A stretch of 64,000 nucleotides of DNA, taken from Verrucomicrobiota bacterium. GTDB taxonomy: Bacteria > Verrucomicrobiota > Verrucomicrobiia > Limisphaerales > Palsa-1400. Below, piece by piece: positions 8,931 through 43,327 of this stretch (position 1 is the stretch's first letter; each line of letters begins with the position of its first letter). Location: assembly GCA_049510745.1 (NCBI GenBank), contig JBEKYR010000019.1:1-64000 (forward strand), given 5' to 3'. Position numbers and translations under genes: made by a program. The notes under the pieces were generated by a model. It was given only the letters and a program-made list of their open reading frames with translations. It did not search any database and was not told the DNA's origin.

Positions 8931-8958
8931 TTTGAAAATGCGCAGTGAGAAGGAGAAG

Positions 8959-10091: not shown

Positions 10092-10107
10092 CCGGACACC
10101 CAAAAAA

Positions 10108-12306: not shown

Positions 12307-12308
12307 AA

Positions 12309-19318: not shown

Positions 19319-19332
19319 AACCAGCGCGGAAA

Positions 19333-21683: not shown

Positions 21684-22471
21684 TTTGCGCCGGCATCGAC
21701 GCGGGTTCGCGCTCCATCAAGGCGCTGCTGTTCGACACCGACCGGGCGCAAGTTCTTGCCTCCGGCCTGGCCGACCAGGGCGTGGAACAAGAACGCCTGG
21801 CAGCGGAACTTTTCGCGGCGCTTTTGCGGGAGGCGGGACTGGAGCGGTCGCGCGTTTCCGGCGTGGTGGCCACCGGCTACGGACGCCATGCCATCCGTTT
21901 CGCCGACACCACCATCACCGAGATCACCTGCCACGCGCGCGGCGTCCACCGGCTGGCGCCGGACGCGCGCACGATTGTCGAGATCGGCGGACAGGACAGC
22001 AAGGTCATCTGCCTCGAAGACGGCGGGCGCGTGCGCGATTTTGCGATGAACGACCGCTGCGCGGCGGGCACGGGACGCTTCCTGGAGATGGTCGCGGCGC
22101 GGCTGGACATGAATTGGGAAAAGCTGTCGGAACTGGCGCGCCAGAGCAAAAAGCCCGCGCTCATCAGCAACATGTGCGTGGTCTTCGCCGAGACGGAAAT
22201 CATCGGCCTGCTGGCGGACGGCCAGCCGTTGGCGGACGTGGTGGCCGGCGTGCAAAACGCCATTGCCACCCGCGTGGGGGCGCTGGCCGGGCGGTTCGTT
22301 TCGCCGCCGGTTTATTTCACCGGCGGCGTCGCGTTGCTGGCCGGCATGGCCCGCGCGCTGGAGGAGGTTTTGGCTTGTCCGGTCCGGGTCGCGCCGCGGC
22401 CGCAATTCACCGGCGCGCTCGGCGCCGCGCTGTCCGCCCGCGCGGCCGAGCCGCCCGGCGGCGGCCTATGA
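21680..22471 (+). CDS. ATP-dependent [4Fe-4S] activase (HgdC/BadF/BcrA/D, YjiL-like)
   Basis: GIDAGSRSIK, ATGYGR, EITCHARG, IGGQDSK, MNDRCAAGTGRFLE, CVVFAETE, GALGAA. Confidence 0.92.
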   Translation: MICAGIDAGSRSIKALLFDTDRAQVLASGLADQGVEQERLAAELFAALLREAGLERSRVSGVVATGYGRHAIRFADTTITEITCHARGVHRLAPDARTIVEIGGQDSKVICLEDGGRVRDFAMNDRCAAGTGRFLEMVAARLDMNWEKLSELARQSKKPALISNMCVVFAETEIIGLLADGQPLADVVAGVQNAIATRVGALAGRFVSPPVYFTGGVALLAGMARALEEVLACPVRVAPRPQFTGALGAALSARAAEPPGGGL

Positions 22472-23953: not shown

Positions 23954-25899
23954 CCGCGCTGCGCCGCCACATCATGCTCGGCACCGCCGGGCACGTGGAC
24001 CACGGCAAGAGCGCGCTGGTCAAGCTGCTCACCGGCTGCGAAACCGACACGCTGGCGGAGGAAAAACAGCGCGGCCTCACGATTGACCTCGGCTTCGCGC
24101 CCTGCCAGCTCGCGGACAAACGGGTGGTCGGGGTGGTGGACGTTCCCGGCCACGTGGATTTCATCCGCAACATGGTCGCCGGCGCGCACGGCATCGACGT
24201 GGTCATCTTTGTCGTCGCGGCGGACGATGGCATCATGCCGCAAACGCACGAGCACCTGCACATTCTCACGCTGATGGGGTTGCGCCACGGGCTGGTGGCG
24301 CTGACGAAAATTGATCTCGTGGACGCCGCCCGGCGGGATTTTGTGATCCAGGATTTGCGGCGGCTGCTGGCGGAAACCTTTTTGGCCGGCGCGCCCATTT
24401 GTCCGGTCTCCAACGTCACCGGCGAAGGCCTCGACGATTTTTTTGACGCGTTGAACCGGACCGTGGACGCGTGCGGCGACCGGCCTTGCGCCGGGCCGTT
24501 CCGGCTGTGGGTCGAGGATGCGTTCAGCATCCGCGGCACGGGCACAGTCGTCACCGGCATTCCCACCCATGGCCGGGTTCGCCCTGGCGACGAGCTTCAT
24601 CTCTTGCCCGCCGGTCTGGCCGGGCACGTCCGCCGGATGCAGGTTTATGGCGAGGACGCCGCGGAAGGAAGCGCCGGGGAATGTGTCGCGCTGAACATAC
24701 CGGAACTGGAGCACGAAGCCGTCCGGCGCGGCCTGGCTCTCTGCGCTTCAAATATGTTCGAGCCGAGCATGATGGCCGAGGCGGAATTGCAAATTTTGAA
24801 ATCCATCCAAACCAACATCGAGGACTACCTCGAAGTGCAACTTCATGTTGGAACCGCCTCGGTCCCGGCGCGCCTGGCGATGCTGGAAAACACCGCCATG
24901 ACCGGCGGTCAAAGACAATTCGTCCAGCTTCGCCTCGCCTCACCGCTGCCGCTCGTGCCCGGGGAGCGGTTTGTGGCGCGGGCCAATGTTGCCGGCGCGG
25001 GCCTCAGCGGGCTGACGACCATCGGCGGCGGACAAATTCTCGGCTTGAGCAACGCGCGGTTGCGCCGGAAAAAACCATGGACGCTCGACCTGCTCGCCAC
25101 CCGGCGCGAAGCCGTCCAGCTTCCGCTGCGCTGGTGCGAACAGATGGTGCGCGAAAGCGAATCGCCCGCCACCGTGGCCAGCCTCCAAAAAAAATGCTGG
25201 AACCGCCCGGAGGAAATCGCCGAAGCGCTCGAACGGTTGCACGCCGAAAACCGGGTGGTTCAGGCGCCTGGCGGCGGATGGATTCATCGCGCCGCGATGC
25301 AAAAGATGGCGGAGAACATTCTCGCCGCCGTCCAGACTTTTCACGCGGCCAACCCGCAACGCGCCGGCATCAGCCGCGAAGAACTGCAGGCGGCGCTCAA
25401 AGCCGATCCCGTTTTTCTGGAGGCGGCGGCGGAATCGCTGCTGGACTCGAAGCAGATCGAACGCAACGGCGCGCTCTTGGCGCGGGCCGGTTGGAACGCG
25501 CGGATTCCAGAGCGCGACCAGCGCTTGTGCGACCAGATCGCCGCGAAATTGCAGCAAGGCGGCTGCTCCCCTCCGGGCTTGGCCGAACTGGCCGCGTCGG
25601 CCAACGAGCCGCTCCCGCGCGTCCTCGCGCTGGCGCAACTGCTGGCGGAACGCGGCGTGGTGGTGCGGTTGGACGACCAGATTTGGATGCACCGCGACGC
25701 CGTGGCGGCCGGCCGGGAAACGGCCCTAAGACTTTTCACGCGCGCGCCGGCCTTTTCCACGATGGAATTCCGCGACGCCCTCGGCGTCAGCCGCAAATTC
25801 GCCGTGCCGCTGGCGGATTACCTGGACAAAATCCGCTTCACCGTCCGCTCCGGCAACAATCGCACGCCGGGAGCGGAAGCCAGAAAACTCTTTCCATGA
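23950..25899 (+). CDS. selB: Selenocysteine-specific elongation factor
   Basis: GTAGHVDHGKS, EEKQRGLTIDLGF, DVPGH, C-terminal SECIS-binding winged helix FRDALGVSRKFAVPL. Confidence 0.97.
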   Translation: MTALRRHIMLGTAGHVDHGKSALVKLLTGCETDTLAEEKQRGLTIDLGFAPCQLADKRVVGVVDVPGHVDFIRNMVAGAHGIDVVIFVVAADDGIMPQTHEHLHILTLMGLRHGLVALTKIDLVDAARRDFVIQDLRRLLAETFLAGAPICPVSNVTGEGLDDFFDALNRTVDACGDRPCAGPFRLWVEDAFSIRGTGTVVTGIPTHGRVRPGDELHLLPAGLAGHVRRMQVYGEDAAEGSAGECVALNIPELEHEAVRRGLALCASNMFEPSMMAEAELQILKSIQTNIEDYLEVQLHVGTASVPARLAMLENTAMTGGQRQFVQLRLASPLPLVPGERFVARANVAGAGLSGLTTIGGGQILGLSNARLRRKKPWTLDLLATRREAVQLPLRWCEQMVRESESPATVASLQKKCWNRPEEIAEALERLHAENRVVQAPGGGWIHRAAMQKMAENILAAVQTFHAANPQRAGISREELQAALKADPVFLEAAAESLLDSKQIERNGALLARAGWNARIPERDQRLCDQIAAKLQQGGCSPPGLAELAASANEPLPRVLALAQLLAERGVVVRLDDQIWMHRDAVAAGRETALRLFTRAPAFSTMEFRDALGVSRKFAVPLADYLDKIRFTVRSGNNRTPGAEARKLFP

Positions 25900-27518
25900 A
25901 AATTGATTTTGCCAAACGCCGCCGCGTGATGGAGCGGTCGCAGCTTCTGGGGCATTGCATCTGCGACGTGCAACGGCCCTGTCCGTGCGATGTGCTTCGT
26001 GAACAGAATCTTTGTCCCTGCGCCGGAGAGCGGCCTGACACGGTTGACATTTCGCAGGTGAAATTGACGCAACTGGCGCGCAATGCCGGGTGCGCCTCCA
26101 AGCTCGCACCCGCCGATTTGGACGCGCTGCTGGGCCGGCTGCCGGCGGTGGAGGACCCGGCGGTGATTTCCGGCCTGGCCGCCGCCGATGACGCGGCGAT
26201 TTACCGAATGGCGGAGAACCTTTGCCTGGTGCAGACGGTGGACGTGTTCACGCCTTGCGTGGACGACCCGCGGCTCTTCGGCAAAATCTGCGCGGCCAAT
26301 TGTCTCTCGGACATCTACGCCATGGGCGGCGAACCGCGCACGGCTTTGAGCGTGCTGGCGTTTCCTTCCGAAAAACTGCCGGGCGAAATTATTTTTCAAA
26401 TGCTCGACGGCGCAATGGAGGTTTTCAAGCAAGCCGGCGTCGCGCTCGTCGGCGGGCACAGCATCAAGGATGATGAAATCAAACTCGGCTTTGCCATCAC
26501 GGGCCTGATCGATCCCGCCGTGGCCGCCGCCCTGGATAAGCCCAATGCCGGCGACGCGCTGGTCCTGACCAAACCGCTCGGCACGGGTGTGCTGGCGTTT
26601 TGCCGCCAAATCGGGCGCGAGCATCCGGCAGGCATCGCGGCGGCCGAACTTTCCATGTCCGCGCTGAACCAGGCGGCAGCGGAGGCGATGAAAGAAGCGG
26701 GCGCGTCGGCCTGCACGGACGTCACGGGCTTCGGCCTCTTCGCCCATCTGCTGCGGATGCTGCGGCCGGGCGGACTGGGCGCGGAAATTTTCGCGGAGAC
26801 GCTGCCGGCCTTCGACGGCGCGATGGACGCCCTGCGGCAAGGCGTGATTCCGGGCGCGATTGAGCGCAACCGCGAGTATGCCGGCGACGCGCTTCACGTT
26901 GCGCCGGGCGTAAACGAGGCCGCGGTGAACCTGGGATTCGACGCGCAGACTTCCGGCGGCTTGCTGATCGCCGTTCCGCCGGAGCGGCTGGAACGGTTGC
27001 GGCAATCTCTGGCCCGGCGCGGCGCCGGCCATTTTGTCATCGGCAAAATCGTTGCTGAAGCCGGACAGATTTATCTTTCAGCGGCCGGCAACAACACGGC
27101 GGAAATTTCAAGATTGAATTCAACCCTTCAACCGCGGAACATTGATTCCATGACAACACCAAAGAAAAATTCCCCGCCCCGCCACGGCGATTGCTGCGCG
27201 GGCGCGGGCGAAACCGCAGCCGGTTCCGCCGCCGAATCAGAAAAGGCCTTTGACGCGCTGATCCGGTCGGTGCGATCGGCGGGCGCGCTGGATGAAAAGA
27301 CGAAGGAACTTATTCTGTTCAGCCTGGTCGTGGGCAGCCGTTGTCAACCATGTTTTGAGGCGCATCTGCGCAAGGCGCGCGAACTGGGCCTCTCGCAGGC
27401 GGAACTGGACGAGGCGGCGTGGTGCGCCATCGCCCTGGGCGGCGCGCCGGTCATGATGTTTTATCAGGAATGCCTGGAGCGGATTCAATCGGGCAAGGCG
27501 GACCGGGCGCGACCTTGA
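25896..27518 (+). CDS. selD: Selenide,water dikinase (Cys form) with N-terminal Cys-rich extension and C-terminal CMD/AhpD domain
   Basis: Start at ATG 25896 (ATGA overlap with selB). Core motifs AGCASKL, DDAA, TVDVFTP, LSDIYAMGG, GGHS, LTKPLG, TDVTGFGL, DAQTSGGLL. C-terminal EKTKELI..SLVVGSRCQPC..H. Confidence 0.93.
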   Translation: MKIDFAKRRRVMERSQLLGHCICDVQRPCPCDVLREQNLCPCAGERPDTVDISQVKLTQLARNAGCASKLAPADLDALLGRLPAVEDPAVISGLAAADDAAIYRMAENLCLVQTVDVFTPCVDDPRLFGKICAANCLSDIYAMGGEPRTALSVLAFPSEKLPGEIIFQMLDGAMEVFKQAGVALVGGHSIKDDEIKLGFAITGLIDPAVAAALDKPNAGDALVLTKPLGTGVLAFCRQIGREHPAGIAAAELSMSALNQAAAEAMKEAGASACTDVTGFGLFAHLLRMLRPGGLGAEIFAETLPAFDGAMDALRQGVIPGAIERNREYAGDALHVAPGVNEAAVNLGFDAQTSGGLLIAVPPERLERLRQSLARRGAGHFVIGKIVAEAGQIYLSAAGNNTAEISRLNSTLQPRNIDSMTTPKKNSPPRHGDCCAGAGETAAGSAAESEKAFDALIRSVRSAGALDEKTKELILFSLVVGSRCQPCFEAHLRKARELGLSQAELDEAAWCAIALGGAPVMMFYQECLERIQSGKADRARP

Positions 27519-27683: not shown

Positions 27684-27686
27684 GCC

Positions 27687-27932
27687 GTGATTACAACATT
27701 TAAAACCGACACGGTTAATTTTGGCGCCAAAGGCCAGGTGGTCATCCCCCGCCGTCTGCGCAGGGAATTTGAAATTGAGGAGGGGACGAAGGCGCAGGTG
27801 TATGTTGAGAACGGCCAGATTGTGCTCAAACCGATCACGTCGAAATTCATCAGAAGTTTGCGCGGCTCCTTGAAGGGCACCAAGGCGATGGAAACCTTCA
27901 TGGCGGAACGGAAGCGGGAAAGGGAATTATAA
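27687..27932 (+). CDS. vapB: AbrB/MazE-family antitoxin
   Basis: KGQVVIPRRLRREFEIEEG; overlaps the PIN gene by 1 nt. Confidence 0.85.
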   Translation: MITTFKTDTVNFGAKGQVVIPRRLRREFEIEEGTKAQVYVENGQIVLKPITSKFIRSLRGSLKGTKAMETFMAERKREREL

Positions 27933-28333: not shown

Positions 28334-28351
28334 TCGCAGCCCGAGAAAACT

Positions 28352-30822: not shown

Positions 30823-31707
30823 TCACTTTTGACACTCCTCATTAGACGTGGTTTGCGGCAGGGCAAAGCACGGTTCAATGGCGCCGCAGGTGGCGCATTC
30901 CAGGCAGCGGATGCAGCCGGAAACGTTGACGGCCTGATCCACTTTCACACCCATCGGGCAGCGGCTGCGGCAGAGGTTGCATTCGACGCATTGCTGCGGA
31001 TTGAACCGGAGATGAAACAGGCTCAACCGGTTGAAGAGCGCGAGCAACCCGCCGAGCGGACAAAACACGCGGCACCACGGCCGGTGAATGAAAAGCGCGG
31101 CCGCAAGAAAGGAGAGCAAAATGCCGCTCTTCAACCCGCTCATCAGCCAACCGTTGCCGGCAAGCAGGCTTTGCACGGAGTAAGGCACGCCGGCTTCCAG
31201 CGCGCCGGCCGGACAAAGCCGGCAAATGGAAATGACCTGCCTTTCAAATGGAATGCCGTTGAAACCCAGAATCAGCGGCAGAAGAATCACCAATCCTACC
31301 AGAACGAAGTAACGGCCGTAACCGGTCCAGGACGGCAGGATGATTTTCCGGGTGGTGATTTTGCCGAGCAAGTCCTGGAGAAAACCGAACGGACAAGCCC
31401 AGCCGCAAACGATGGAACCGCCGGCCGCGCCGACGAGCACGAGCACGCCGATCAATAAATACGGCACTTCCCCCGCCACTGGCAGCAGCGCCGCGTAGTT
31501 GGCCATCACACCCACCGGGCAGGCGAAGGCCGAGAGCGGGCACGAGTAACAGTGGAACACGCAGCCGGGAATGCCGTGCAGCCACCGGCCCAGCGGCGCG
31601 AGCCACAGGCCGAGAAAACCGGTTTGCACCCAGGGACGCCAGCGCGAGAGTTTTCGTCCGAGCGCCGCCGGCTTCCATTCAGGGCAATTGGGAACGGGAC
31701 ATTCCAT
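30823..31707 (-). CDS. Membrane 4Fe-4S ferredoxin (NapH/MauN-like)
   Basis: HCYSCP...ACP, CGWACPFG, CRLCPAG, WCRVFCPLG, CVECNLCRSRCP, CIRCLEC, plus TM helices. Confidence 0.9.
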   Translation of the reverse strand: MECPVPNCPEWKPAALGRKLSRWRPWVQTGFLGLWLAPLGRWLHGIPGCVFHCYSCPLSAFACPVGVMANYAALLPVAGEVPYLLIGVLVLVGAAGGSIVCGWACPFGFLQDLLGKITTRKIILPSWTGYGRYFVLVGLVILLPLILGFNGIPFERQVISICRLCPAGALEAGVPYSVQSLLAGNGWLMSGLKSGILLSFLAAALFIHRPWCRVFCPLGGLLALFNRLSLFHLRFNPQQCVECNLCRSRCPMGVKVDQAVNVSGCIRCLECATCGAIEPCFALPQTTSNEECQK

Positions 31708-31717
31708 GGGAACAGGT

Positions 31718-31736
31718 CGGCCACGCCACGTGGCCG
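31718..31736 (-). promoter_or_regulatory. Putative SECIS element 1
   Basis: On the minus strand: TGA (31752-31750), then 14 nt, then GGCCAC-GTGGC-GTGGCC. Confidence 0.7.
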
Positions 31737-31740
31737 GAAT

Positions 31741-32115
31741 TCATCTTATTCAGGTGGGACAGGGCGTTTTTGCGCCGAGGTCCACGCGGATTTTCCACGC
31801 CGGCGGCTGGGTATGGGCCTGTTGTTTGGCCCAGCGGTCAAGCGCCTCGCCGGGATTGGCCACGGCATCGAGTTTCGGCGGCGGCGGCGGCGCGACTTGG
31901 TCCGGGTATTGCAAACCGCCGGAGGAGAAGGCTTTGACCAACTGCGTTTCCCACGCCGTGTTTCCGTCCGTGGTGTCCACGTTGGTCAGATGCCGCGCGC
32001 CGCTAAACAGCAGCGCCGCGCCGGTCAGCGCGACAACCAAGCCGGACCAGAAATCGTGGTCTTCCCGCGCGCGCGACGCGCGATTGACCGGTGGCTGGGG
32101 GACTCGCTTGAACAT
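31741..32115 (-). CDS. Putative small membrane selenoprotein with C-terminal CxxU (…KTPCPT-U-IR)
   Basis: ATG at 32115, 18 nt after the tRNA-Sec CCA end. One TM helix. CPT-TGA followed by a SECIS-like hairpin; next stop is TGA at 31743-31741. Confidence 0.7.
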
Positions 32116-32133
32116 GCTACGGATTGGGGAAAA

Positions 32134-32230
32134 TGGCGGAGGTGGATGGGAATCGAACCCACCTGGGACTTTGTTGAGTCCCACGCTGGTTTTGAAGACC
32201 AGGAGCGCCACCAGGTCGCCCCACACCTCC
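32134..32230 (-). tRNA. selC: tRNA-Sec (anticodon UCA)
   Basis: GGAGGTG...CTGGT-CTTCAAA-ACCAG, long variable arm TGGGACT/AGTCCCA, GTGGG-TTCGATT-CCCAT, CACCTCC-GCCA. Confidence 0.95.
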
Positions 32231-32390
32231 CCGGCGGACCGCCGCGCCGCTGGCCAATGGCAGGCGTGATTGATTTCCGGCGGGCCGCATCACACAGGTA
32301 TATTGACAGATTGGAGCGGATAACTCAATCCGAATTTAGTCGCCAGCCGCGCCATAAATGGCAGACTGTTTGCACGTCAGGAAAGAATTT

Positions 32391-33227
32391 ATGGACATTC
32401 GAAAAGCCGTCATCACCGCCGCCGGTCCGGGCCAGCGGACGCTGCCGCTGCAAACGCTGGTTGACCGCGACGGCAAAACCAAGACCGCGCTCGGCATCAT
32501 CGTGGAGGAGGCGCTCAATTGCGGCGCGGAGGAAACCTGCGTGGTGGTCCATCCGGGCGACGCCGAGGCCTACCGCGCCGCCGCCGGGCCGCACGGCAAG
32601 CGATTGCAGTTCGTGGAGCAGGAGAAGGCGCTGGGCTACGGCCACGCCGTCTGGTGCGCCCGCGCCTTCACCGGATCGGAGCCGTTTCTGCTCCTGGTCG
32701 GCGATCATCTTTATCTGAGCCGGGAGAAACGCAGTTGCGCGCGGCAATTGGTCGAGGTCGCCGCGGCCGAGGCCTGCGCCGTTTCCGCCGTGCAGGCCAC
32801 GCACGAAAGCAAACTGCCCTATTACGGCGTGGCGGGCGGGCGGCTGGCGGAGAACCGCAAAGGCCTTTACCTCATTTCCGAGGTGCTGGAGAAACCGACC
32901 CCGACCGTCGCCGAACAACGCCTCATCGTTCCCGGATTGCGCGCGGGCCATTATCTTTGTTTTTTCGGGATGCACGTTCTGACGCCGGCGGTGATGGATT
33001 TGCTGGGGGCGGAAATGGCCGCCGGCCAGGCGGCCAGCCTGAGTCAAACACTCGCCAAGCTGGCCAGCCGCGAGCGCTATCTGGCCTGCGAATTACAGGG
33101 ACGCCGGTTTGACATCGGTTTGAAATACGGCCTGCTGACCGCGCAACTGGCGCTGGCCCTGAGCAGCCCGGCCCGCTCCGAAGTGCTCGCCGGACTCGTC
33201 GAACTCCTCGCCCAGGAACCCCATTGA
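32391..33227 (+). CDS. Sugar-phosphate nucleotidyltransferase (GalU-like)
   Basis: [40 protein letters not shown]. Confidence 0.8.
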
Positions 33228-33235
33228 TCACGCGC

Positions 33236-36200
33236 ATGGCCAGCCCGCTCCTCGACATCATCACCTCGGCGGACGCGAGAATTCGCAACCAGCCGCTCGA
33301 CGCCTTTTGCGCCCGCGCCCCGGCAGATGAACTGCTGGCGGCCTGCGCGGAACTGGAGGGCTTCCGCCGCCGCAGCGACAATCTTTACGAGCGCGTCCGC
33401 GCGTTGTTCTTCCTTTACGCGATTCACCGTTTTCATCTGCCGGGGAAACTGCCCGCGGGCGCGGACGGCATGATTCCCTTCAAAGGATTCGAACATCTGC
33501 TGCACCGCCGGTTTGAAGAGGCGCTCGACCAGTTTCTTTCCGCGCAAAAAAGCGGCGGCCCCAGCGACGCCCTTTGCAGCGCGCTGGCCGCCGTGTATCA
33601 ACGCATCGGCTTTCAGACGCTGGCCGACCAGGTGCGGCGCAGCGTCCGTTCGGTGCGCGGCAACCAATGGATGTTCCGCATGGGCCATCCGGAGGATCAT
33701 CCGTTGCGCGTGCGCCCGGAACTGCTGCAACGCGGCGCGGACGGCGCCTTCCCCGTGCTGCGCGAACGCACCCCGGTGCGGATGGATTTGAGCCATTCGG
33801 GCTGGAGCGACATTTTCTTTCTCGGCATGGATTTTCCCGAAGGCGCCCGCGTGCTCAACGTCTCCATTGACCTGGGCGTTCACGGGCGCGACCAGGCGGC
33901 GCAGCCGCCGGTGGAGGCCTGCTTGCGGGTGATTGACGAACCGGTTTTGCGCCTGACCAGCGTGGACCTCGGCGCCACGGCGGAGATCAACAATCTGGCC
34001 GAGGTTTTTGATTTCGCCCGCGACTACCTCGGATTGCTCAAAGCGGCCGTCATCGCTGCCGGCATTGTGCCGCCGGGCATTGAAGGTTCGGGACTCAATC
34101 TGGCCGACTTGCTCGCGCGGGTCGCCGGGGCCGGGCGCGGCCTGGAATTGGTCAGCCACGTCAACGATATTCCGAAAGGCTCGCGCCTGGCGGTCTCGAC
34201 CAACCTGCTCGCCTCGCTGATTTCCGTCTGCATGAGGGCCACCGGCCAGGCCAAGTCGCTGACTGGCGCGCTGGCCGAGGAGGAACGGCGCCTGGTGCTG
34301 GCGCGCGCGTTGCTGGGCGAATGGCTCGGCGGCTCGGGCGGCGGCTGGCAGGATTCCGGCGGCGTGTGGCCGGGCATGAAACTCATTTGTGGCGTGACCG
34401 CGACGGAAGGCGATCCCGAATTTGGCATCAGCCGGGGCCGGCTCATGCCGGCGCACCGCATTCTGGATCGCCACGACGTTTCGTCCGAGACGCGCGAGCG
34501 TTTGCAGCAAAGCCTCGTGCTCGTCCACGGCGGCATGGCGCAAAACGTCGGGCCGATCCTCGAAATGGTGACGGAAAAGTATCTGCTCCGTTCCGCCGCC
34601 GAATGGGCCGGACGGCAGCAGGCCATCGGGTTGCTCGATGAAATCGTGTCGGCGCTGCGCGCCGGAGATGTGCGCGGGGTGGGCGCCCTGACCACGCGCA
34701 ATTTTTGCGAGCCGATCCAAACCATCATTCCGTGGGCCAGCAACGCCTTCACCGAATCGGTCATCGCGTCCGTGCGGGACGAGTTTGGCGCGGATTTCTG
34801 GGGGTTCTGGATGCTCGGCGGCATGTCCGGCGGCGGGATGGGTTTCATCTTTGAGCCGCAACGCAAGGCGCGGGCGCAGCAGCGGTTGCAGGAAATCATG
34901 TCGCAAACCAAGCGCGAACTGCAACACGCGCTGCCCTTTGCCATGGAGCCGGTGGTCTATGATTTCGCCATCAACGAGCGCGGCACCTGGGCGGACCTGC
35001 TGCGCGGCGACGAGGCGTTGCTGCCGCGCGGCTACTACGCGCTGCATGTTCCGCGCTGGCTGCGGGCCGATCCGCAGGCGCTGACCAGGGCGCAGCGCGC
35101 CGAACTGGACAAGTTCGGCGCCGCCTGCCGCACGCGAACGGAATTGTCCGGCATGATGCAGACGCTCTTCGACCGCCTGCTGCCCCGGCTCAAATCCGAG
35201 GGCGGCTCCCAGCAAAGCCTGGCGGAATTGCTCGAACAAAACGGCTTCGACCGCGTGCAGCATGAGCAGATTCGCGACGATTTGAAAGACGGCCGCATCG
35301 GCTTGGCCCAAAACCGCCTGCCCGCCAGCGCCGACATCAAGGACGTGCAGGATGCCGATGTGTTCAATGCCACCGGGCCGTTGGCGGAGGAATTGCGCCA
35401 GGCCGGCCTGGCCGCCCTCGCCCGCGGCGAACTGGCGGTGGTCACGCTGGCCGCCGGCGCGGGCAGCCGCTGGACGGAAGGCGCTGGTGTGGTCAAGGCG
35501 CTGCATCCGTTCTGCAAATTCAACGGCCTGCACCGGACGTTCATCGAAACGCACCTGGCCAAGAGCCGCCGTATCGGCCAACTGGCCGGCCAGACGCTGC
35601 CGCACTTCTTCACCACCAGCTACCTGACCCACGCGGCCACCGAGGAATTCCTGCGCCGGAAGAAAAATCATCATTATCCCGGACCGCTGCTCCTGTCGCC
35701 CGGCAGGTCCATCGGGCTGCGGATGATCCCGATGGTGCGCGACCTGCGCTTTCTCTGGGAGGAGATGCCGCAGCAACGGCTCGACGAGCAGCAGCAAAAA
35801 GTGCGCGACAGCCTGCGGGCCGCGCTCCTCAACTGGGCCCGTTCGGCGGGCGAGGGCGGCGATTACACCGACAATCTCCCGGCCCAATGCCTGCACCCGG
35901 TGGGACACTGGTTCGAGGTGCCGAACCTGCTGCGCAACGGCGTGCTGGCGCGCTTGCTCGCCGAACGTCCGCAGTTGCGGCACCTGATGTTGCACAACAT
36001 CGACACGCTCGGGGCGGACGCGGACCCGGCGCTCTTCGGTTTGCATCTGGCGCAGGAGGGCTGCCTGACGTTCGAGGTCATCACGCGCCGGCTGGAGGAC
36101 CGCGGCGGCGGCCTGGCCCGCGTTAATGGCCAGGTGCGGCTGGTGGAAGGACTGGCCATGCCGCGCGAGGAGGATGAGTTCCAACTCCGCTTCTACAATT

Positions 36201-36556
36201 CAAACACCTGCTGGATCGACATCGACAAACTGCTGGCGGTTTTCGGCTTGAGCCGGGCCGACCTTTCCAAGGCGGAACACGTCGCCGCCGCCGTGCGCGC
36301 GCTGGCCGCGCGCATGCCGACCTACATCACGATCAAGGATGTCAAGAAGCGCTGGGGCCACGGCCAGGAAGACGTGTTCCCGGTCAGCCAGTTTGAGAAA
36401 CTGTGGGTGAACATGACCGCGTTGCCGGAAGTGAAAACGCGCTTTGTCGTGGTGCCGCGCCTGCGGGGACAACAGCTCAAGGACCAGGCGCAACTGGACG
36501 GCTGGCTGCGCGATGGCTCGGCCGATTTCGTCAACCAGCTTTGTGCCTGGCCGTGA
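33236..36556 (+). CDS. GHMP-kinase-like / UDP-sugar pyrophosphorylase fusion
   Basis: [32 protein letters not shown], then [32 protein letters not shown]. Confidence 0.75.
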
Positions 36557-36606
36557 ATACGGATTGATATTGCAGTAAGCCCTTCGATTTGCTAATAGCC
36601 TGTCTA

Positions 36607-38706
36607 ATGGCAAAGCAAAAGACTGGTGGCTTATCATGGCGCTGGCTGGGAACCGCCGGGGTGGCTTGCTGGACGTGTGCGCTGTTGGTTGTGCTTTGCT
36701 CGGAAAACAGGCTTCGCGCGGCTGATTCTCTTCTTTCCGGTTCTCCGTCCTCAAACGCCGTCATGGCTGCGCTGGAGTATCAGGAAACAGACTCTGGCGT
36801 CATCAACTGGGGCGTTTCCCTGACGCCGCGGACCAGTCCTTTCAAAAAAGAGCCGGCGGCGGCTTCGGGCAAAATCATTCGCGGCGTTTTGAATTTCGGC
36901 GCCGATTCCAGCAACTCCATTCCCTTTCTCTGGCAGTGCCAGGCGGGAAAACTTTACCTCGACCTCAATCGCAACCAGGATTTGACCGACGATCCCTCCG
37001 GCCTGTTCTTGGCGCGCGCCGCGAAGCCGGATAATTACCAGACCTTTGCGAACGTCCACCTGCTTTTCAACACCGCTTCCGGCAGGTGCCGGGTGCTGGC
37101 GGACCTCTCCTTCTGGGACTACAGTGCGCCGCCAATTTGCAGCTTCGCGGTGCGCTCGTTCTGGCAAGGCAAACTGAGGTTGCAAGGGCGGGATTGGCAG
37201 GTGGGCATCGTCCCGAATATCCTGGACCGATCGGGCTTGTTCGAGAACAGCCGGTTGCTGCTGCGTCCCTGGGATAAACGAAGCCAGCCGTTCAACGCGG
37301 ATGATGGGTTGCTCGCCACTGTTCCCTTCTCGCGGAAACTTTTTGTGGATGGCCACGCCTATCAACTGGAGTGCGTCGCCCGTTCGCAAGACGGCGAAGC
37401 CAGGCCCGCGCTCCAATTCACGGAACAATCCGTCGCGCTGGGCGAAGTGAAAATCACCGGCCAATTCATCCGCCGCCTTGTTCTGCAGGGCGAGGCGTTC
37501 CTGGTGGTGCTCGATCAGCCGGCAGGCGTCGTGAAAATCCCGGCCGGCAGCTATCACCAGCCCGAGATCCTGCTCGAACAAGACGGCGTCGCGGCCTTCT
37601 CCCGCAATTCCGGCCAGTGGCAAATTGGCCGGCAGATTTCCGTGCGCGACAAGGCACAGGTGGCATTGAACGCGGGCGGGCCGTTGACCAATTCCGTCGC
37701 CACCGGCCGCCACGGTCAGGATTTGCGTCTGGATTATTGCCTGCTCGGCGTGGGCGGCGAAACTTACCAACTGGCCAGGCAAGATCGCTCCAAGCCGCCG
37801 GAGTTCGCGGTTTACAAGGGCGGAAAAAAAATCGCGTCCGGCAGATTTGAGTTTGGCTGAGGCAACACCTGCTCGCACTCATGGCGAGTGCCTCTCACCG
37901 CCGGCGGCAAACTGTCCCTTGTGGCTTCGTCCGACCTCGGAGCGCTCGGTGCGAAGGAAGGTCCGGCGGTCATCTACGACTGGGTGTTGCCCAGCCTGGC
38001 GCCGCTGTTGCTGCCGTGGCTGGTCATTCTGGGATTGCTCACCTTGAAACGGAATCGTTGCGCGGCCGCGTGGTGGATTTGGCTGCCGCTCGGATATGTG
38101 ATCGCGTTTACGTTGGCGCCGCTGGACATCATGCCCGCGGGAACAGATTTTTTCCTGGATGTCATCGCGGCGCTGGCGGCGGGGCTGGGCGCGGTCTGGC
38201 TCCTGACAGATTATCTCCGGCGGCCACATCGGTTCGTTACGTTTCTGTGCCTCCTGCTCGCCTTGGCCGGTTTCAGCGCGCTGGCCTTTGTGTCCGCACA
38301 AAGCTGGAGTTTCACGTCGGAAACATTTGTGGCCGGCATCGTTCTGGCCGTGGGCGTGGTGGTCAGTGCGGTGGCGTTGAGTCTGGCCGGGCTGATCTGC
38401 CGCGGCCGTTATCGTCGCGTCGGCCTTTATGGGTGGCTGCTCCTCTTGCTGGCCGTCATCTGGCTGGTGATCACCGGGCCTTTCTTTTTGTTCGCGCTCA
38501 TCGCTTCAGGCGGAAGAGTGTCTTGGGGCGGATTCTTTGTTCCCGTTTTTGCGTTGGTGACGCTCCATTTCGCCACCCTGCTGCCGTTCCTGATCCTGTC
38601 CTCGGCCAGCCCGTTTTACCGCCAACGGCTCAAGGCCCTGCTGCACGTCACACCGGAAGCGCCGCCCGTGCTGGCGCCTTTGCCGGATGCCGGTTTAAAA
38701 ACTTGA
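36607..38706 (+). CDS. Putative exported/membrane selenoprotein (FEFG-U-GNTC) with about 7 C-terminal TM helices; TGA 37858-37860 read as Sec
   Basis: The 36589..37860 and 37888..38706 ORFs are in the same frame, separated only by this TGA and 9 sense codons. A SECIS-like hairpin follows. Confidence 0.8.
37875..37891 (+). promoter_or_regulatory. Putative SECIS element 2
   Basis: TGA, then 14 nt, then GCACTC-ATGGC-GAGTGC. Confidence 0.8.
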
Positions 38707-38737
38707 ACTCGATGAACACCAAGCCAACCATGATGTT

Positions 38738-40009
38738 ATGAAACTTTCCAAACAACTGTTCCTGGCCGGAATGGTTCTCGCCGGCGCCGCCTTCGCGCAA
38801 TCCGAGCAATGGCTGGAATACCACACCGGCGCCGAGGGCCGCGCCTACCAGCAGGTGGAACTGACCACCAATCCGCCCCCCGGCGTCGCTCTGCCGAAGT
38901 TCAATGCGCCGCCCTATTTCGCCCGCTGGCTCACGCCGATGGACCCCGCCGGCGGGCGCTGGCTCTGCCTGGACCGCACGCGCAAGTCCGGACCCTATGA
39001 CCGGCTGTTCTTTGACAACAACGGCAATGGCCGGCTGGACGACAAATCGCCCCTCCCGGCGCGGCTGGATTCCTCCTTCGCCTATTTTCCGCCAGCCCGC
39101 GTTGTGTTCAAGGGCGAGGACGGGCCGATCACCTATCATCTTGTCTTCCGCTTCTATCAATACGAAAAGAATCCCCCGCAATTGCTGGCCTCCTCCGCCG
39201 GCTGGTATGAAGGTCTGGTCAATTTCGACGGCGCGAAAAAGCGCATTCAACTCATCGACGGCAACGTCAACGGCACGTTCAACGACGTCGCCCCGGACCC
39301 GTATGACTGCGACCGCGTCCAAGTCGAGGGCGACAAGACCAGCGAACGGTTTTTGGGCCGGATGCTGGAAGTGGACGGGAAGTTTTACCGGATCGAAGCC
39401 GCCCGCGACGGCGCGTTCGTCAAAGTGCAGAAGGCGGAGAACGTCACCCTCGGCCAGGTGCGTGTGCCGGAAAACATTTCCGAATTCGCCGCCTTCGGCC
39501 CGAACGGCCATTTCGTGCGCACACCGGCGGACGGCCAATTCACCTTGCCGGCGGGCCATTACCGGATTTTCCACTGGACGATCAGCCGCAAGGATGAAAA
39601 GGGCGCGCCGTGGACGCTCTCAGGCTATAATTTTCCCAAAACCGCCACCTTCGAGGTCGCCGCCGATAAGACCGCCTTGGTGCAAATCGGTGAGCCGGTG
39701 CAAGCCGTGCTCAAGGCGGCGGAGGGCGCCAAGCGTCAAGTCGATTTCAGCCTCAGCTTCGTGGGCCGGCAAAAGGAATCCATCGAGATGCTGTGCGACG
39801 GCCAGCGCCCGCGCGGGCCGAAATTGACGTTGGCCAACAGCGACGGGACGCTGTGTTATACGAACACTTTCGAGTTTGGATGAGGCGGCGTTTGCTCGCT
39901 CTCATGGCGGGAGCCTAAAAATGTGCGGCGTCCGTTGGTTGGCGGCGTCAAAATTTTCAGCCCGTTCCAGGTGCTGACGAGTCCGTTGACGCTCGCGCCA
40001 AAAAAATAA
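38738..40009 (+). CDS. Putative exported selenoprotein (FEFG-U-GGVC), paralogue of the preceding gene; TGA 39881-39883 read as Sec
   Basis: Signal peptide. Read-through adds UGGVCSLSWREPK...LAPKK up to TAA at 40007-40009, 12 nt before the next ATG. Confidence 0.78.
39898..39914 (+). promoter_or_regulatory. Putative SECIS element 3
   Basis: TGA, then 14 nt, then GCTCTC-ATGGC-GGGAGC. Confidence 0.8.
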
Positions 40010-40021: not shown

Positions 40022-43000
40022 ATGAAAACGACACGGCAATTCCTTCTGGTCTCTGCCGCTTGGGCGCTCCTGGGCGTCAGCACGCACGCCCAGACGCTGG
40101 AGCGGGTGGGGGTTCAAAAAGTGGCGGACACAGCCACGAACGCTGGCGCGCAAAAACTTACCGGAACGGTCACCGACGCCGCCGGCCATCCCCTGGCCGG
40201 CGCGACGGTGGAGTATTGGCGTTACGAGGGAAATCGGCTCCTGGCGAGTCCCTTGGAATTGATCGGGCAAATCACTACGGAAACGAACGGCGCTTTTGAA
40301 TTCCAACTCTCGCGGGCGGCCGGATTCCTCCTGGCACGAAAGCCGGGCCTGGCCCCGGCCTGGATACAATTGGGCCAGCCGTATCCTTCCGTCGGTGACA
40401 GGGGAGAGAATTTGATGCTGACTCCGCCCGCGGCGCTGGCGGGCGTGGTGGTGGACGAAGCGGACAAACCTGTTCCAAACGCCCGGGTTTCCGTGGCCAT
40501 TGCCATCTCCGAAATGTCGCAGGAGGAGGGAGCGCGAAGTCTTAATTATTTCACTGGCAAACCCGCGCGCGATTGTTTTGCCGCCCGCACGGATGCCGCC
40601 GGCCGTTTCCGCATCGAGAATTTTCCGACCAATGGCACGGCCGCCCTGACCGTTCAGGCGCCGGGAAAAGCTCTGCGCCAATCACCGCAGGAAGCCGGCG
40701 GCATGGACTCGCTGCCTTGGCGCGCGGGCCAGCAAGACATCAAATTGGTCGTGGAACCGGCCGGCAGCGTCGAAGGAAGGATTATCGTCGAGGGCAGCAA
40801 TCAACCGCCGCCCGTCGCGCGGCTGACGTTGCAGCCCGATGGGCCGGGCTTTGCCGCGCTTGACGAGCGCGAGCCGGCGCCATCCGGCGCGGACGGCGCG
40901 TTCCAACTCAGCGACGTGCCCGCCGGTTCTTATCACATTCATGCCGTCTTTGGAACCAATGCCGTTCCGGAATGGGTCGCAGACATGGTTCCAGTTTCGG
41001 TTGAGTCCGGCCAACCCACGCGCGGCGTGCAGGTGACTGCGGTGCGCGGCGGCGTGCTGGAAGTGGCCGTGCTGGGTCAAAATGATCGCAAACCACTGGC
41101 GCAAATTATGGTCAATGCCGTCAAGGAGAATTTTCAATCCGCCGCCAGTTCGGACAGCAACGGCATCGCTCTCCTGCGGCTGCCGCCTGGAGATTATCAG
41201 GTGGCGGCGTTTCGTGAATCCATGCCCGCGAGCCAGACTCCCGCCAGCGTGGAAGCCGGCAAAACCAACCGCGTGGAGATTGAAATCGCCCCGCCGAGAA
41301 AAATCACCGGCATCGTCCGCCAACCGGACGGCCAGCTGGCGGCGGGGTTGCGGGTGAGATTGGTGGGTGGGTTTGGCCCCGGGGCGGGCGAAGTCAAGAC
41401 CGATCCCGGCGGCCAGTTTAGTTTGGAATGGAATCAGCGCCGATTCGGACAGAACGACACGACTGCCTGCGTTCTCGTGCGGGACGCGGAACACAATCTG
41501 GCCGTGGCGCAGGACATTGACGAAGACACCGGCCCGCTCGACCTGAAACTCGCGCCGGGGCTGACGCTGGCGGGCCGGGCGGAATCCGACGGCAAACCCC
41601 TCACGAACGCGGCCGCCGCGCTGATTTTCTTTACCGGCAGAAGGGGCATGCACCTCGCCGGATTGAGCCGCGAAACCAACACGCCGGGCCGGTTTGAAAT
41701 TCCCGCCATTCCGCCCGGACGAAAATACGGCGTCCTGGTCTCCGCTCCGGGTTACGGACAGAAGGCGAATTACGATGTGAATGCCGCCGCCGAAGGTGGC
41801 CGCATGGAACTGGATCCCTTTGAGCTTAAACCTGCCAACCTCAAACTCGCCGGCCAGTTGCTCGACGCGGACGACAAGCCGGTCGCAGGCGCCTATGTGA
41901 ATCTTTACGGAGAGGGCCAGCCCAGTGCAAACGCGCGCACGGACCGCGAGGGTCGCTTCCGCTTCGAGCATGTCTGCGAAGGCCCGGCTCGAATCTCGGC
42001 CAACAAGCAGAATTCATTCGGCAATATGTCGGCGGAAGGCGGCGACACCAACGTCGTTCTGCGGCTCGGTCAAACCCTCAACAACTCCCCGGGTTCCACC
42101 GCCCATAAACTCAAAGGCACTGTGACCGACCCCGACGGCAAACCCGCCGCCGGCGCGCAGTTGGCGGTGTTTCCGTCCTTTGATGTGAGTTGGACAAAGA
42201 CCGCGACCAACGGCGCCTTCAGCCTCACTTGGTCGCTCCAGCCCTGGCAAATGCAGCAGTCAGGCGGCGCCGCGCTGCTGGTGGCCCGCGACCCGGCCCG
42301 CAATCTGGCCGCCACCGAAGAGTTGCCGGAGGAAACCACCAACCTCGACGTGAAATTGAAACCGGCCCTGACCGTCACCGGACTGGTTGAAAAAGATGAC
42401 GACTCTCCACTCGCGGGCGCGCAGGTCGGTGTCTGGCTCAAGGCGGGCAACATGTACGACCAGTTGAACCAACAAATGGCTGGGACCGACGCCCAAGGCC
42501 GCTACGAAATCAAGTGCCTGCCGCCGGATGCGTCATACATTGTTTTCGCCACCGCCAGCGGCCACGGTCGAAGCCAGCAGCAAGTTCAGAACGATTCCGA
42601 AACAAACCGCGTGGAACTATCGCCCTTCGTCCTCAAGCTGGCCGACCGTTTTTTGGCCGGCCAGGTGCTCAACGAAAATGACAAGCCCGTTTCCGGCGCG
42701 AACGTGTCGTTGAATGGCGAAGACCAGCCCCAAGCCAGCATGACCACCGACAGCAAGGGCCGCTTTCACTTCCAGGTTTGCGAAGGGCAGGTCCGCCTCT
42801 TCGCCAATTCCCCCCAAGGCGGTGAATTCGCGCAAGCCACCGCCGAAGCGGGCGACACCAACGTCGTGATGACTTTGAGTTCCCAGGCGGGGAATATCCG
42901 CGAGACACCGCACCGCGCCTCGCTCAAAGGCAGTCCGCTGCCGGACTTGGCGGCCGTCAATCTCGCCGGCGACGCCGCCCCCGCCGGCCAGCCGGTGTTG

Positions 43001-43327
43001 TTATGCCTGTTCGACGCGGGCCAGCGTTCGTCGCGACACGTCGTCCACCAGTTGGATGGACAGGCCCCCGCGCTGCGGCAGCAAGGCGTCACGGTGCTGG
43101 GCGTTCAAGCCGCGGTCACCAGCGATGACATACTCAACGAATGGAAAAGCGCCAGTCCGGTTTCATTCCCGCTCGGACGCGTGGCGGAGAAATCCGAAAA
43201 ATCAAAATGGGCCTTGGCCGTTCCGGCCTTGCCGTGGCTGATCCTGGCCGACGCCCATCATCGCATCATCGCCGAAGGCTTCCCGCTCGACGACCTGGAC
43301 GCGCAGATCAAAACCCTGGCCAAGTGA
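40022..43327 (+). CDS. Exported protein with repeated carboxypeptidase-regulatory-like domains and a C-terminal thioredoxin-like domain lacking CxxC
   Basis: Signal peptide and repeated G.V.D..GKP.AGA.V...TD..GRF units. C-terminal GSPLPDL...GQPVLLCLFDAGQRSSR...ALPWLILAD..II. Confidence 0.75.
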   Translation: MKTTRQFLLVSAAWALLGVSTHAQTLERVGVQKVADTATNAGAQKLTGTVTDAAGHPLAGATVEYWRYEGNRLLASPLELIGQITTETNGAFEFQLSRAAGFLLARKPGLAPAWIQLGQPYPSVGDRGENLMLTPPAALAGVVVDEADKPVPNARVSVAIAISEMSQEEGARSLNYFTGKPARDCFAARTDAAGRFRIENFPTNGTAALTVQAPGKALRQSPQEAGGMDSLPWRAGQQDIKLVVEPAGSVEGRIIVEGSNQPPPVARLTLQPDGPGFAALDEREPAPSGADGAFQLSDVPAGSYHIHAVFGTNAVPEWVADMVPVSVESGQPTRGVQVTAVRGGVLEVAVLGQNDRKPLAQIMVNAVKENFQSAASSDSNGIALLRLPPGDYQVAAFRESMPASQTPASVEAGKTNRVEIEIAPPRKITGIVRQPDGQLAAGLRVRLVGGFGPGAGEVKTDPGGQFSLEWNQRRFGQNDTTACVLVRDAEHNLAVAQDIDEDTGPLDLKLAPGLTLAGRAESDGKPLTNAAAALIFFTGRRGMHLAGLSRETNTPGRFEIPAIPPGRKYGVLVSAPGYGQKANYDVNAAAEGGRMELDPFELKPANLKLAGQLLDADDKPVAGAYVNLYGEGQPSANARTDREGRFRFEHVCEGPARISANKQNSFGNMSAEGGDTNVVLRLGQTLNNSPGSTAHKLKGTVTDPDGKPAAGAQLAVFPSFDVSWTKTATNGAFSLTWSLQPWQMQQSGGAALLVARDPARNLAATEELPEETTNLDVKLKPALTVTGLVEKDDDSPLAGAQVGVWLKAGNMYDQLNQQMAGTDAQGRYEIKCLPPDASYIVFATASGHGRSQQQVQNDSETNRVELSPFVLKLADRFLAGQVLNENDKPVSGANVSLNGEDQPQASMTTDSKGRFHFQVCEGQVRLFANSPQGGEFAQATAEAGDTNVVMTLSSQAGNIRETPHRASLKGSPLPDLAAVNLAGDAAPAGQPVLLCLFDAGQRSSRHVVHQLDGQAPALRQQGVTVLGVQAAVTSDDILNEWKSASPVSFPLGRVAEKSEKSKWALAVPALPWLILADAHHRIIAEGFPLDDLDAQIKTLAK

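Follow-up and report, generated by a model that had tools for sequence, protein, structure and literature searches.

Background

The bacterial SECIS (bSECIS) has been condensed, in the cited portion of a recent review, into a consensus with a 3-9 nt apical loop, a 4-16 bp stem, a UGA-to-loop distance of 16-37 nt and an energy of -7.5 kcal/mol or lower, together with the loop rule N(0-1)G[G|U], under which one of the first two loop bases is a G (Zhang et al. 2026, PMC13188914, in excerpt). The same excerpt acknowledges that SECIS classes outside the present models exist. SaoC carries its Sec at or near the C-terminus with the SECIS past the stop codon, and double-cubane proteins have been tied to SelD (Haft & Gwadz, bioRxiv 10.1101/2022.07.06.499078, in excerpt).

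Here we describe three hairpins in a window of 64,000 nucleotides, the whole stretch of verrucomicrobial DNA analysed (Table 1). On comparative sequence grounds, they are very probably bacterial SECIS, and the three genes that carry them selenoprotein genes whose UGA would be recoded. As in bSECIS, the stem-loop stands just 3' of the UGA and holds a conserved G followed by G or U (PMC13188914, in excerpt). The 5-nt loop, the 6-7 bp stem and the UGA-to-loop distance (20 nt at sites 1, 2 and 3, and 20-23 nt in homologues of family 2) fall within the consensus, as do the energies of the 23-nt local folds (-9.1, -8.4 and -15.2 kcal/mol at sites 1, 2 and 3). Unlike bSECIS, the conserved G takes the third position of the predicted loop, and AUGGC and ACGGC lie outside N(0-1)G[G|U]; a G is found in the first two positions at site 3 (GUGGC) but not in the predicted structure of sites 1 and 2 (AUGGC). 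The A-first loops depart from the published consensus because their conserved G sits 3 nt further out than in E. coli, at loop position 3.

In common with the SECIS of E. coli fdhF and of verrucomicrobial FdhA, the element is a short apical hairpin beyond the ribosome footprint, and its predicted reader SelB has homologous winged helices (PMC8659212, in excerpt). The features of the fdhF type (11-nt spacer, bulged U17, G23-U24) are absent here, the spacer being 14 nt and the conserved G being G26 (PMC8659212, in excerpt). The verrucomicrobial FdhA elements differ in having GGUCU at 18 nt where ours have RYGKY.

Neither the loop nor the two protein families are described in the literature searched; supplements and BSepDB could include them. 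Against the catalogued selenoprotein families (NCBIfam 20.0, Pfam), neither family gave an HMM match above cut-off.

The three hairpins and their genes

Inspection of the sequence confirmed the sequence-only reading in that a hairpin begins 14 nt after a TGA at all three sites. TGA 37858-60 of site 1 is followed, after the spacer, by GCACTC (37875-80), ATGGC (37881-85) and GAGTGC (37886-91), and TGA 39881-83 of site 2 by GCTCTC (39898-903), ATGGC and GGGAGC (39909-14). At site 3, TGA 31752-50 precedes GGCCAC (31735-30), GTGGC and GTGGCC (31724-19), with the stem growing to 7 bp as (C)GGCCAC-GTGGC-GTGGCC(G). The changes between the stems of sites 1 and 2, from A-T to T-A and from T-A to T-G, are as claimed. 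While the gene of site 3 is indeed unrelated, sites 1 and 2 are paralogous, so there are two independent gene families and not three. Site 1 scores 45 bits with our hairpin model R1, by construction. At sites 1 and 2, the whole-region folding energy is ordinary (z -1.3 and -0.4) and the 48-nt minimum-energy folds are unlike the local hairpin.

Table 1. Features of the selenium island and its surroundings in the window
Feature	Position	Strand	Basis or remark
Double-cubane reductase, methyltransferase, two HGD-D-like proteins, ATP-dependent activator	17202..22471	+	NF040772, TIGR00241 above cut-off
selA	22544..23953	+	TIGR00474 above cut-off
selB	23950..25899	+	TIGR00475 above cut-off
selD, catalytic-site Cys	25896..27518	+	TIGR00476 finds Cys-type orthologues
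NapH/MauN-like membrane ferredoxin, directly after site 3	30823..31707	-	PF12801; weak TIGR02163
Site 3: predicted Sec UGA, Ile-Arg, stop UGA, hairpin	31718..31752	-	sequence, homologues
Family 2, 124-aa predicted selenoprotein	31741..32115	-	ends CPT-U-IR-stop
tRNA-Sec (selC), anticodon UCA	32134..32230	-	RF01852, 70.7 bits
Family-1 paralogue a, predicted exported selenoprotein	36607..38708	+	FEFG-U-GNTC
Site 1: predicted Sec UGA and hairpin, coding region	37858..37891	+	sequence
Family-1 paralogue b, 423-aa predicted exported selenoprotein	38738..40009	+	FEFG-U-GGVC
Site 2: predicted Sec UGA and hairpin, coding region	39881..39914	+	sequence, homologues
Carboxypeptidase-regulatory-like repeat protein, exported	40022..43327	+	conserved family-1 neighbour

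Paralogue a, whose start codon is uncertain (36589 or 36607), has after its motif a hydrophobic membrane region some 280 aa long. The structure model of paralogue b is all-beta; it puts U and C in a turn of the Ig-like sandwich at the C-terminus, and the residues after U are needed to complete the last domain. Pfam and NCBIfam searches of both paralogues gave no match, and fold searches returned generic Ig-like matches only (best Z 6.9; Foldseek TM ~0.17), from which no function is inferred. A thioredoxin-fold UxxC selenoprotein was rejected on account of the all-beta model and the U-x3-C motif. A G-U-x-G or GxxU-like local motif is shared with hypothetical selenoprotein DG (NF049953, GUxG) and TsoC (NF045708); membership of either was likewise rejected, as the window has no match to these models and family 1 is exported and all-beta with U-x3-C. 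Towards its C-terminus, the neighbouring repeat protein has a stretch that weakly resembles redoxins (AhpC-TSA E 0.028, below cut-off).

Conservation and covariation in family 1

All six pairs are standard in each of 53 distinct homologous contexts of family 1. In 30 of these, picked for diversity, 180/180 cells are paired, compensatory changes occur in 5/6 pairs and covariation reaches 0.579, against 0.196 in shuffled and 0.02-0.19 in slid controls; the homologues being related, such counts exaggerate independence, and the shuffle control is blind to phylogeny. The stem also appears in the choice of codons: G15 falls at a codon third position in 53/53 contexts, spread over five codons, while Ser7 is TCA in 36/48 TCN codons, Arg9 is CGA in 34/49 CGN codons and Ile10 is ATA in 7/7, although genome usage of these codons is only about 5-9%. 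Synonymous codon choice is skewed so as to keep the hairpin.

The UGA is kept in 17/18 class matches and 14/14 phylum matches. Cys replaces U in three database homologues (P0137, P0247, P0259), all with Lys at a position that has Lys in 0/53 Sec contexts, so that the loop-closing pair would be broken in them; one Cys version seen at the DNA level (L083, n=1) has no hairpin. The loop G is also fixed by a Trp or Gly codon, and the Trp persists in 2/3 Cys homologues.

These observations bear on whether the UGAs are true stops, with the hairpins serving as terminators or stability elements or arising as by-products of a conserved overlapping-frame peptide. We consider this highly improbable. All 120 matches listed per family are indeed annotated as ending at UGA, and the bare pattern is near chance genome-wide; however, neither TAA nor TAG stands at the U position in 31/32 family-1 matches whereas the second stop of family 2 varies freely, Cys and other homologues run on through the same motif, the predicted fold requires the residues after U, and no U-run lies 3' of the stems at sites 1-3.

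As to the loop, RUGGC had been put forward as the consensus and proved too narrow: homologues show ACGGC, ATGGT, GCGTC, GTGTC, CGGGC and GGGTC, and in untranslated copies the spacing shifts to 20-23 nt. The loop consensus is N-Y/G-G-K-N, or R-Y-G-K-Y in the untranslated copies.

A conserved selenium island

The selA, selB, selC and selD genes all lie within the window, with selC directly upstream of the family-2 gene. SelD is extended at its N-terminus by a Cys-rich segment and carries a CMD domain at its C-terminus. The double-cubane block is linked to the island also in genomes G029, G039 and G059. SelB is found in 19/20 carrier genomes, against about 20/201 genomes of the class; in one genome (G150), the gene, its TGA and the hairpin persist although selA is present in fragments only and neither SelB nor tRNA-Sec gives a match above cut-off. 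The element travels with a conserved PVC selenium island (selABCD, double-cubane reductase and two orphan selenoprotein families) and not with a taxon.

It is also hardly credible that UGA is read here as Trp, Gly or Cys, whether by a reassigned code or through a suppressor tRNA, the hairpin being a generic stimulator of read-through. UGA-to-Trp reassignment has been reported in Verrucomicrobiota (PMC13462651, in excerpt), and Gly stands at the U position in 4/13 read-through database homologues, which are indistinguishable from code-25 gene calls. Yet TGA is the main stop of this genome (648/1145 long ORFs), tRNA-Sec(UCA), selA, selB and selD flank the genes, nearly all carriers are SelB-positive, and Cys is the aligned residue in three homologues. 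The earlier description of the element as the organism's SECIS stands in the form that it is very likely the SECIS of this genome's detectable selenoprotein genes, given the conserved UGA, the covariation, the Sec machinery in the window, the Cys homologues and the conservation at site 3 free of coding constraint.

Family 2 and the two UGAs of site 3

The family-2 protein has one hydrophobic segment and a CxxU close to its C-terminus, and no meaningful Pfam or NCBIfam match. It resembles SaoC, UXX-star and KCU-star in having Sec at or near the C-terminus (PMC13188914, in excerpt), but matches none of their NCBIfam models and has UGA as its next stop in 6/20 contexts. The UGA is conserved, but no Cys form occurs among the 120 database matches listed, all of which (120/120) end at CPT. 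The NapH/MauN-like ferredoxin gene follows family 2 in relatives too.

A second in-frame TGA (31743-41) lies between the first TGA of site 3 and the stem. From its pattern in homologues it is read as a real stop, giving a predicted CPT-U-x-x-stop: in 20 homologous contexts this stop is TAA in 13, TGA in 6 and TAG in 1. A double-Sec CxxUxxU protein ('CPTUIRU') fused to the ferredoxin was rejected, since TAA or TAG takes the place of the second UGA in 14/20 and the reading frame into the next gene is not conserved. The hairpin starts 5 nt past the stop, within the untranslated stretch that precedes the next ATG (31707), and is conserved without coding constraint: 19/20 contexts retain a stem of at least 6 bp and, 20-23 nt from the UGA, an R-Y-G-K-Y loop, against a background of 12 of 4623 long-ORF stops. 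The copy of genome G123 lacks the standard hairpin. The 'WR' dipeptide, thought to be shared by all three sites, is so at sites 1 and 2 only; at site 3 it is untranslated because 31743-41 is a stop.

We propose that the island SelB would bind the G-containing five-base loop and bring Sec-tRNA to the UGA, which precedes the stem by 14 bases. When the A site holds the Sec UGA, the stem would begin at +15, outside the ~11 nt under the ribosome, and since it would clear the ribosome the hairpin should stay folded for SelB. With the second UGA of site 3 in place, the stem would begin at +6, inside the tunnel, where it should come apart and leave RF2 to terminate. One hairpin may thereby distinguish a Sec UGA from a stop UGA that lies 9 nt further on.

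Range of the element and its use as a search key

The label 'lineage-specific' did not survive comparison: genomes of the same order (G111, G183) and class (G020, G076) have a Sec-FdhA with the canonical GGTCT loop 18 nt after UGA, and an R1 search of five Sec-FdhA genomes gave no match better than E 0.13. Nor did the pattern serve as a key for FdhA, Prx and HesB, none of which has an in-frame stop in this genome; no canonical selenoprotein was found here, and R1 recovers only its two training families (five carriers). The weak R1 matches inspected in 11 genomes added no new coding Sec context (150 candidates scored per genome). A looser motif scan gave 22 TGA, 16 TAG and 12 TAA candidates, recovering sites 1 and 3, missing site 2 and yielding nothing else convincing, while a self-trained coding-potential scan, at the thresholds used, detected none of the three known sites. 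A Sec/Cys BLAST within the genome returned 92 matches, which were read as shadow frames or broken genes.

Of 165 RTGGC hairpins with a stem of at least 6 bp in the genome, 7 have TGA at the key offset, against 0 with TAA and 0 with TAG; but TGA triplets are 3-5-fold more numerous than TAA and TAG, 4 of the 7 look chance-like, and other offsets of the same hairpins give 0-6 TGA. The bare pattern is weak within one genome, and the case beyond chance rests on the homologues.

Variant or ordinary SECIS

The predicted structure marks the element as a variant of standard SECIS, with the conserved G at loop position 3 and at position 26 where E. coli has 23. There is about an even chance that it is instead an ordinary SECIS, in which the two outermost loop bases pair (G-C or non-canonical A-C) to leave a UGG triloop with G second that any bacterial SelB reads; this contests the variant and not the SECIS itself. 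The G-first loops do fold with a triloop (site 3), and spacing, stem and energy lie within the consensus. The last winged helix of the island SelB shares the RK[YF] motif with crystallised SelB (SRKFAVP aligns with SRKYVLP of PDB 1lva/1wsu), and the SelB that accompanies the island in genomes G024 and G071 belongs to the FdhA clade. However, A-first loops make up 39/53 family-1 contexts, and A-C, the commonest first-last combination (37/53), does not count as a standard pair; the CGGGC loop of G024 and G071 has G second; in 9/9 genomes with A-first loops, SelB has [RK]K[YF] and falls on the island side of the tree; and the conserved G lies 3-6 nt further from UGA than in same-class FdhA elements. 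A SelB winged-helix motif unique to this loop was rejected, as RK[YF] accompanies CGGGC and GGGTC loops too and is present in crystallised SelB.

A wider proposal, tentative and in our judgement rather doubtful, is that the island has its own SelB lineage and its own SECIS class, with G at loop position 3 and one codon further out, the two forming a pair at least partly orthogonal to the FdhA/E. coli type and sustaining Sec in genomes that lack classical selenoproteins, solely for two uncatalogued envelope families linked to the double-cubane reductase. One of the two families is very large (2861 representatives at 50% identity).

Implications

Canonical SECIS are found in 87.4% of bacterial selenoprotein entries, and wider models are called for (BSepDB, PMC13326102, in excerpt); the element would be a concrete, covariation-backed departure from the canonical form. 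It marks two predicted selenoprotein families that are cut at UGA in databases (120/120 matches listed for each) and have no NCBIfam or Pfam model. Site 3 offers a natural test, with a predicted Sec UGA and a stop UGA set apart by one hairpin. Should this loop be the one that the island SelB prefers, the two would constitute a second SelB-SECIS pair, with a stem tolerant of several peptides, that could be useful in selenoprotein engineering. Finally, the element suggests a reason for the upkeep of selABCD in a genome without Sec-FdhA.

Three hairpins in the window

The hairpin that follows a UGA at three sites in the window is very likely a real SECIS, which works like the bacterial element as a variant of it and is not of the E. 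coli fdhF type. All three sites are present as first described, each a TGA followed after 14 nt by a stem of 6 bp with RTGGC in the loop, and selA, selB, a Cys-type selD and tRNA-Sec are also found in the window. Close homologues are in records labelled Verrucomicrobiae or Limisphaerales. A genome scan with this key recovered the three sites, but the bare TGA-N14-stem-RTGGC pattern is weak within one genome: 7 of the 165 RTGGC hairpins genome-wide have a TGA at the 14-nt offset against 0-6 at other offsets, and 4 of the 7 lack any coding or Cys context. Support for the reality of the element comes from comparison with homologues and not from the single-genome pattern.

Positions of the elements and of genes discussed with them (L, fetched loci; G, genomes; no prefix, the window)
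Feature	Position	Strand	Basis
Site 1, TGA/stem start	37858/37875	+	window sequence
Site 2, TGA/stem start	39881/39898	+	window sequence
Site 3, TGA/stem start	31752/31735	minus	window sequence
Site 3, hairpin before NapH-like gene	31707-31752	minus	
MPFG-U-DGTC paralogue	L035:11859-11903, L037:11881-11925, L043:11923-11967	minus	family-1 sequence and hairpin
Large unannotated genes	918-17370		
SelD	25896-27518		
Island-interrupting genes	27682-30646, 32358-36556		
selA pieces, selB-like fragment	G150:C35:21957-23644 (L182)		
FdhA-like match	G053:C98:3243-3983		
WCKC-TGA-GVP-stop ORF	G000:C30:8773	minus	

Conservation and covariation in family 1

Sites 1 and 2 lie in paralogues of one family (family 1) with the motif F-x-[FY]-G-U-G-G-x-C-x-x-S-W-R-x-P. 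The 201 genomes of the class hold 18 matches, 17 with one in-frame TGA and a marginal one (E 3.8e-4) carrying TAG and TAA. In 301 phylum genomes, 14 of 14 matches to a profile have TGA. Peptide-pattern extraction from all loci fetched yielded 53 distinct contexts, many of them close kin; all six stem pairs are standard in every one, and the flanking positions have no consistent pairing. One carrier of the family, G320, falls outside the pattern, yet has the same hairpin. Thirty of the 53 were picked for diversity. In them 180 of 180 cells are paired, both partners vary in five of the six pairs, and covariation scores 0.579, compared with 0.196 for shuffled and 0.02-0.19 for slid partners, which bears out the stem covariation claimed in the sequence-only reading.

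In 53 of 53 contexts the stem opens with a G in third codon position, over five different codons, the Ser7 codon is never AGY, and the rare codons TCA, CGA, ATA and GTA (5-9% usage in the genome's own long ORFs) are heavily used; the synonymous sites are adjusted to the hairpin. RUGGC, proposed as the consensus loop, proved too narrow, given that the 53 loops comprise ATGGC (37), GTGGC (6), GGGTC (4), CGGGC (3), ATGGA (2) and CGGCG (1), with the third base G alone invariant. Three relatives have a further paralogue, MPFG-U-DGTC, with the same hairpin; it lies on the other strand, upstream of the pair, and no copy was found in the genome studied.

Protein databases stop at the UGA: all 120 close homologues listed end FEFG or FEYG, and among the best 150 of 2861 representatives at 50% identity (full HMM search) 135 end at the Gly before U and 13 read on. 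Of these 13, three carry Cys in place of U (P0137, P0247 and P0259, as does a second repeat of P0196), Gly stands there in four, and the remainder have other residues. At one position all three Cys forms carry Lys, a residue found there in 0 of 53 Sec contexts, and its codon would break the loop-closing pair because the C or G of Ser would then face an A; the one Cys version seen in DNA (L083, E 1e-4) has lost the hairpin. The Gly forms retain W-R; their Gly may be a TGA codon translated in gene calls made with code 25.

A hairpin past the stop codon in family 2

The gene at site 3 is from a second family, which ends C-P-T-U-x-x-stop and is unrelated to the first; 120 of 120 listed homologues end at CPT. 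In 20 genomic contexts, extracted with a pattern that demanded TGA as first codon, the stop three codons past it is TAA (13), TGA (6) or TAG (1), and the hairpin therefore lies past the stop, under no coding constraint. A stem of at least 6 bp and an R-Y-G-K-Y loop are kept in 19 of the 20 (the exception being G123), the distance from the first UGA to the loop being 20 nt in 10 cases, 21 in 4, 22 in 4 and 23 in 1. In the genome studied, matches to this relaxed key follow long-ORF stops in only 12 of 4623 cases; sites 1 and 2 account for two, and the others are spread evenly across TGA, TAA and TAG. Such retention is the cleanest evidence of RNA-level selection on the loop. The translated W-R dipeptide first taken to be shared by all sites holds for the S-W-R of family 1, but at site 3 it is untranslated because the hairpin is beyond the stop codon.

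In the window, this hairpin ends 11-12 nt 5' of the ATG of a NapH-like membrane ferredoxin gene, with which both UGAs are in frame, a frame kept in only some relatives. SelB binding here could affect translation of the downstream gene, and rare double read-through would yield a fusion with its product.

An island-specific element

The SECIS had been considered lineage-specific and a key to canonical selenoproteins, and neither view held. FdhA (TIGR01553 at E 1e-40) occurs in 7 of 201 class genomes, six with TGA, and in 0 of 12 carriers; in the four FdhA elements examined, including those of G111 and G183 from the same order, a GGTCT loop follows the UGA at 18 nt, in the E. coli register G23-U24. 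The SECIS is specific to the island, with a wider loop consensus. In the genome studied, no in-frame stop was found in 14 AhpC/TSA, 14 thioredoxin and 2 HesB-like matches or in one listed of two molybdopterin Fe4S4 matches, and SelD has Cys, not Sec. A covariance model built from both families, which by construction ranks the three sites first here (next match 18.8 bits), recovers no families other than 1 and 2 in five carrier genomes, and in five genomes of the FdhA type no match surpasses E 0.13. Beyond the three genes, no selenoprotein candidate was found among the families tested, a subset of those known, in this 94%-complete genome.

Locus L147 (G183:C27), from an FdhA-type genome, encodes a Sec-type SelD with a different downstream hairpin, in the CAGGTCCTG region and further from the UGA. 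G053 (89% complete) has an FdhA-like match with an in-frame TGA and no SelB at E 1e-60. An ORF of G000 ending WCKC-TGA-GVP-stop is without a hairpin, and its TGA is probably a plain stop.

At E 1e-60 or better, SelB is present in 18 of 201 class genomes; G024 and G071 fall below this threshold, yet have selA, selB and tRNA-Sec. Of the carriers, 11 of 12 in the class and 8 of 8 more in the phylum have SelB. In SelB trees, a 100/100 branch separates nine island SelBs from the others, and 17 of 19 carriers lie on the island side after eight genomes were added (FastTree 1.0, midpoint root only). The SelBs of G024 and G071 group with the FdhA type, and the loop there is CGGGC. In the bin G077 (completeness 74%, contamination 4%) the two SelBs (C88 and C195, loci L172 and L171) fall on opposite sides, with no client of the second in the 16 kb examined. 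The last helix reads [RK]K[YF] in all nine A-first-loop genomes, which can only suggest specificity for such loops, since the motif also occurs with CGGGC and GGGTC loops and in crystallised SelB.

Gene order and island variants

Of 14 close loci, 11 have family 1a, family 1b, a repeat protein, selC and family 2 in this order on one strand; the NapH-like ferredoxin comes next in 10 loci. Family 1 lies beside a double-cubane reductase, an HGD-D-like pair and an activator in G029, G039 and G059, and also with selD and selAB in the first two. Given this shared order and linkage, the three genes constitute one conserved island, of which the window holds a rearranged version.

Compared with L032-L045, the block of selC, family 2 and ferredoxin has the opposite orientation here, and the island is interrupted by genes absent at that position in relatives: a small ORF followed by a 133-aa protein (presumably toxin-antitoxin-like), a 764-aa protein without Pfam match, and a nucleotidyltransferase plus sugar-kinase/UDPGP fusion. 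Directly upstream of the double-cubane gene runs a series of large unannotated genes, for which motifs or weak matches point to FHA-like, DUF58-like and GATase1-like products. The Cys-type SelD is a fusion: its N-terminal extension is rich in Cys (CICDVQRPCPC...CPC), and its C-terminus is a CMD/AhpD-like domain carrying CxxC. Long SelDs of this Cys type, in frames of 529-568 aa, are also found in G165, G059 and G029. Records titled Candidatus Acidoferrum and Bifidobacteriaceae (L042, L044) carry nearly identical cassettes, through either transfer or mislabelled bins. G150 has selA fragments only beside its family-1 gene, in pieces with TGA stops and followed by a selB-like fragment, and no tRNA-Sec over the cut-off; its family-1 gene retains the TGA and a perfect hairpin despite the broken selA, and the locus is possibly an island in decay.

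Proposed mechanism and roles

The last winged helices of SelB bind the SECIS at the mRNA entrance. With the Sec UGA in the A site, the hairpin would stay intact during decoding, because its stem starts at +15 and its G lies at +23; with the stop UGA of site 3 there, the stem at +6 would melt inside the tunnel, and RF2 would terminate. One published model has a codon-loop link of ~13 nt and a conserved G ~20 nt downstream (PMC4605307), and the ribosome covers ~11 nt (PMC4513850). Local 23-nt folds give the expected hairpin, and longer folds of sites 1 and 2 give alternative structures involving the spacer, which the ribosome would mask. SaoC, with a SECIS beyond the stop codon, is a precedent for the layout of site 3, and the link between the double-cubane protein and SelD is already known (bioRxiv 10.1101/2022.07.06.499078).

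The structure of family 1b, modelled with confidence, is all-beta; U362 and C366 sit on a turn of its Ig-like C-terminal sandwich. In two homologues, AhpC/TSA domains are part of a fusion. From the neighbourhood, the leading though tentative proposal is an envelope redox relay, in which the ferredoxin and its CxxU partner would pass electrons to exported U-x3-C proteins serving the double-cubane system; the main alternative is a metal- or selenium-binding role. Neither family matches Pfam or NCBIfam 20.0 or was recognised among the 119 families tabulated in a review (PMC13188914). The hairpin is a key to two orphan families, not to the canonical selenoproteins.
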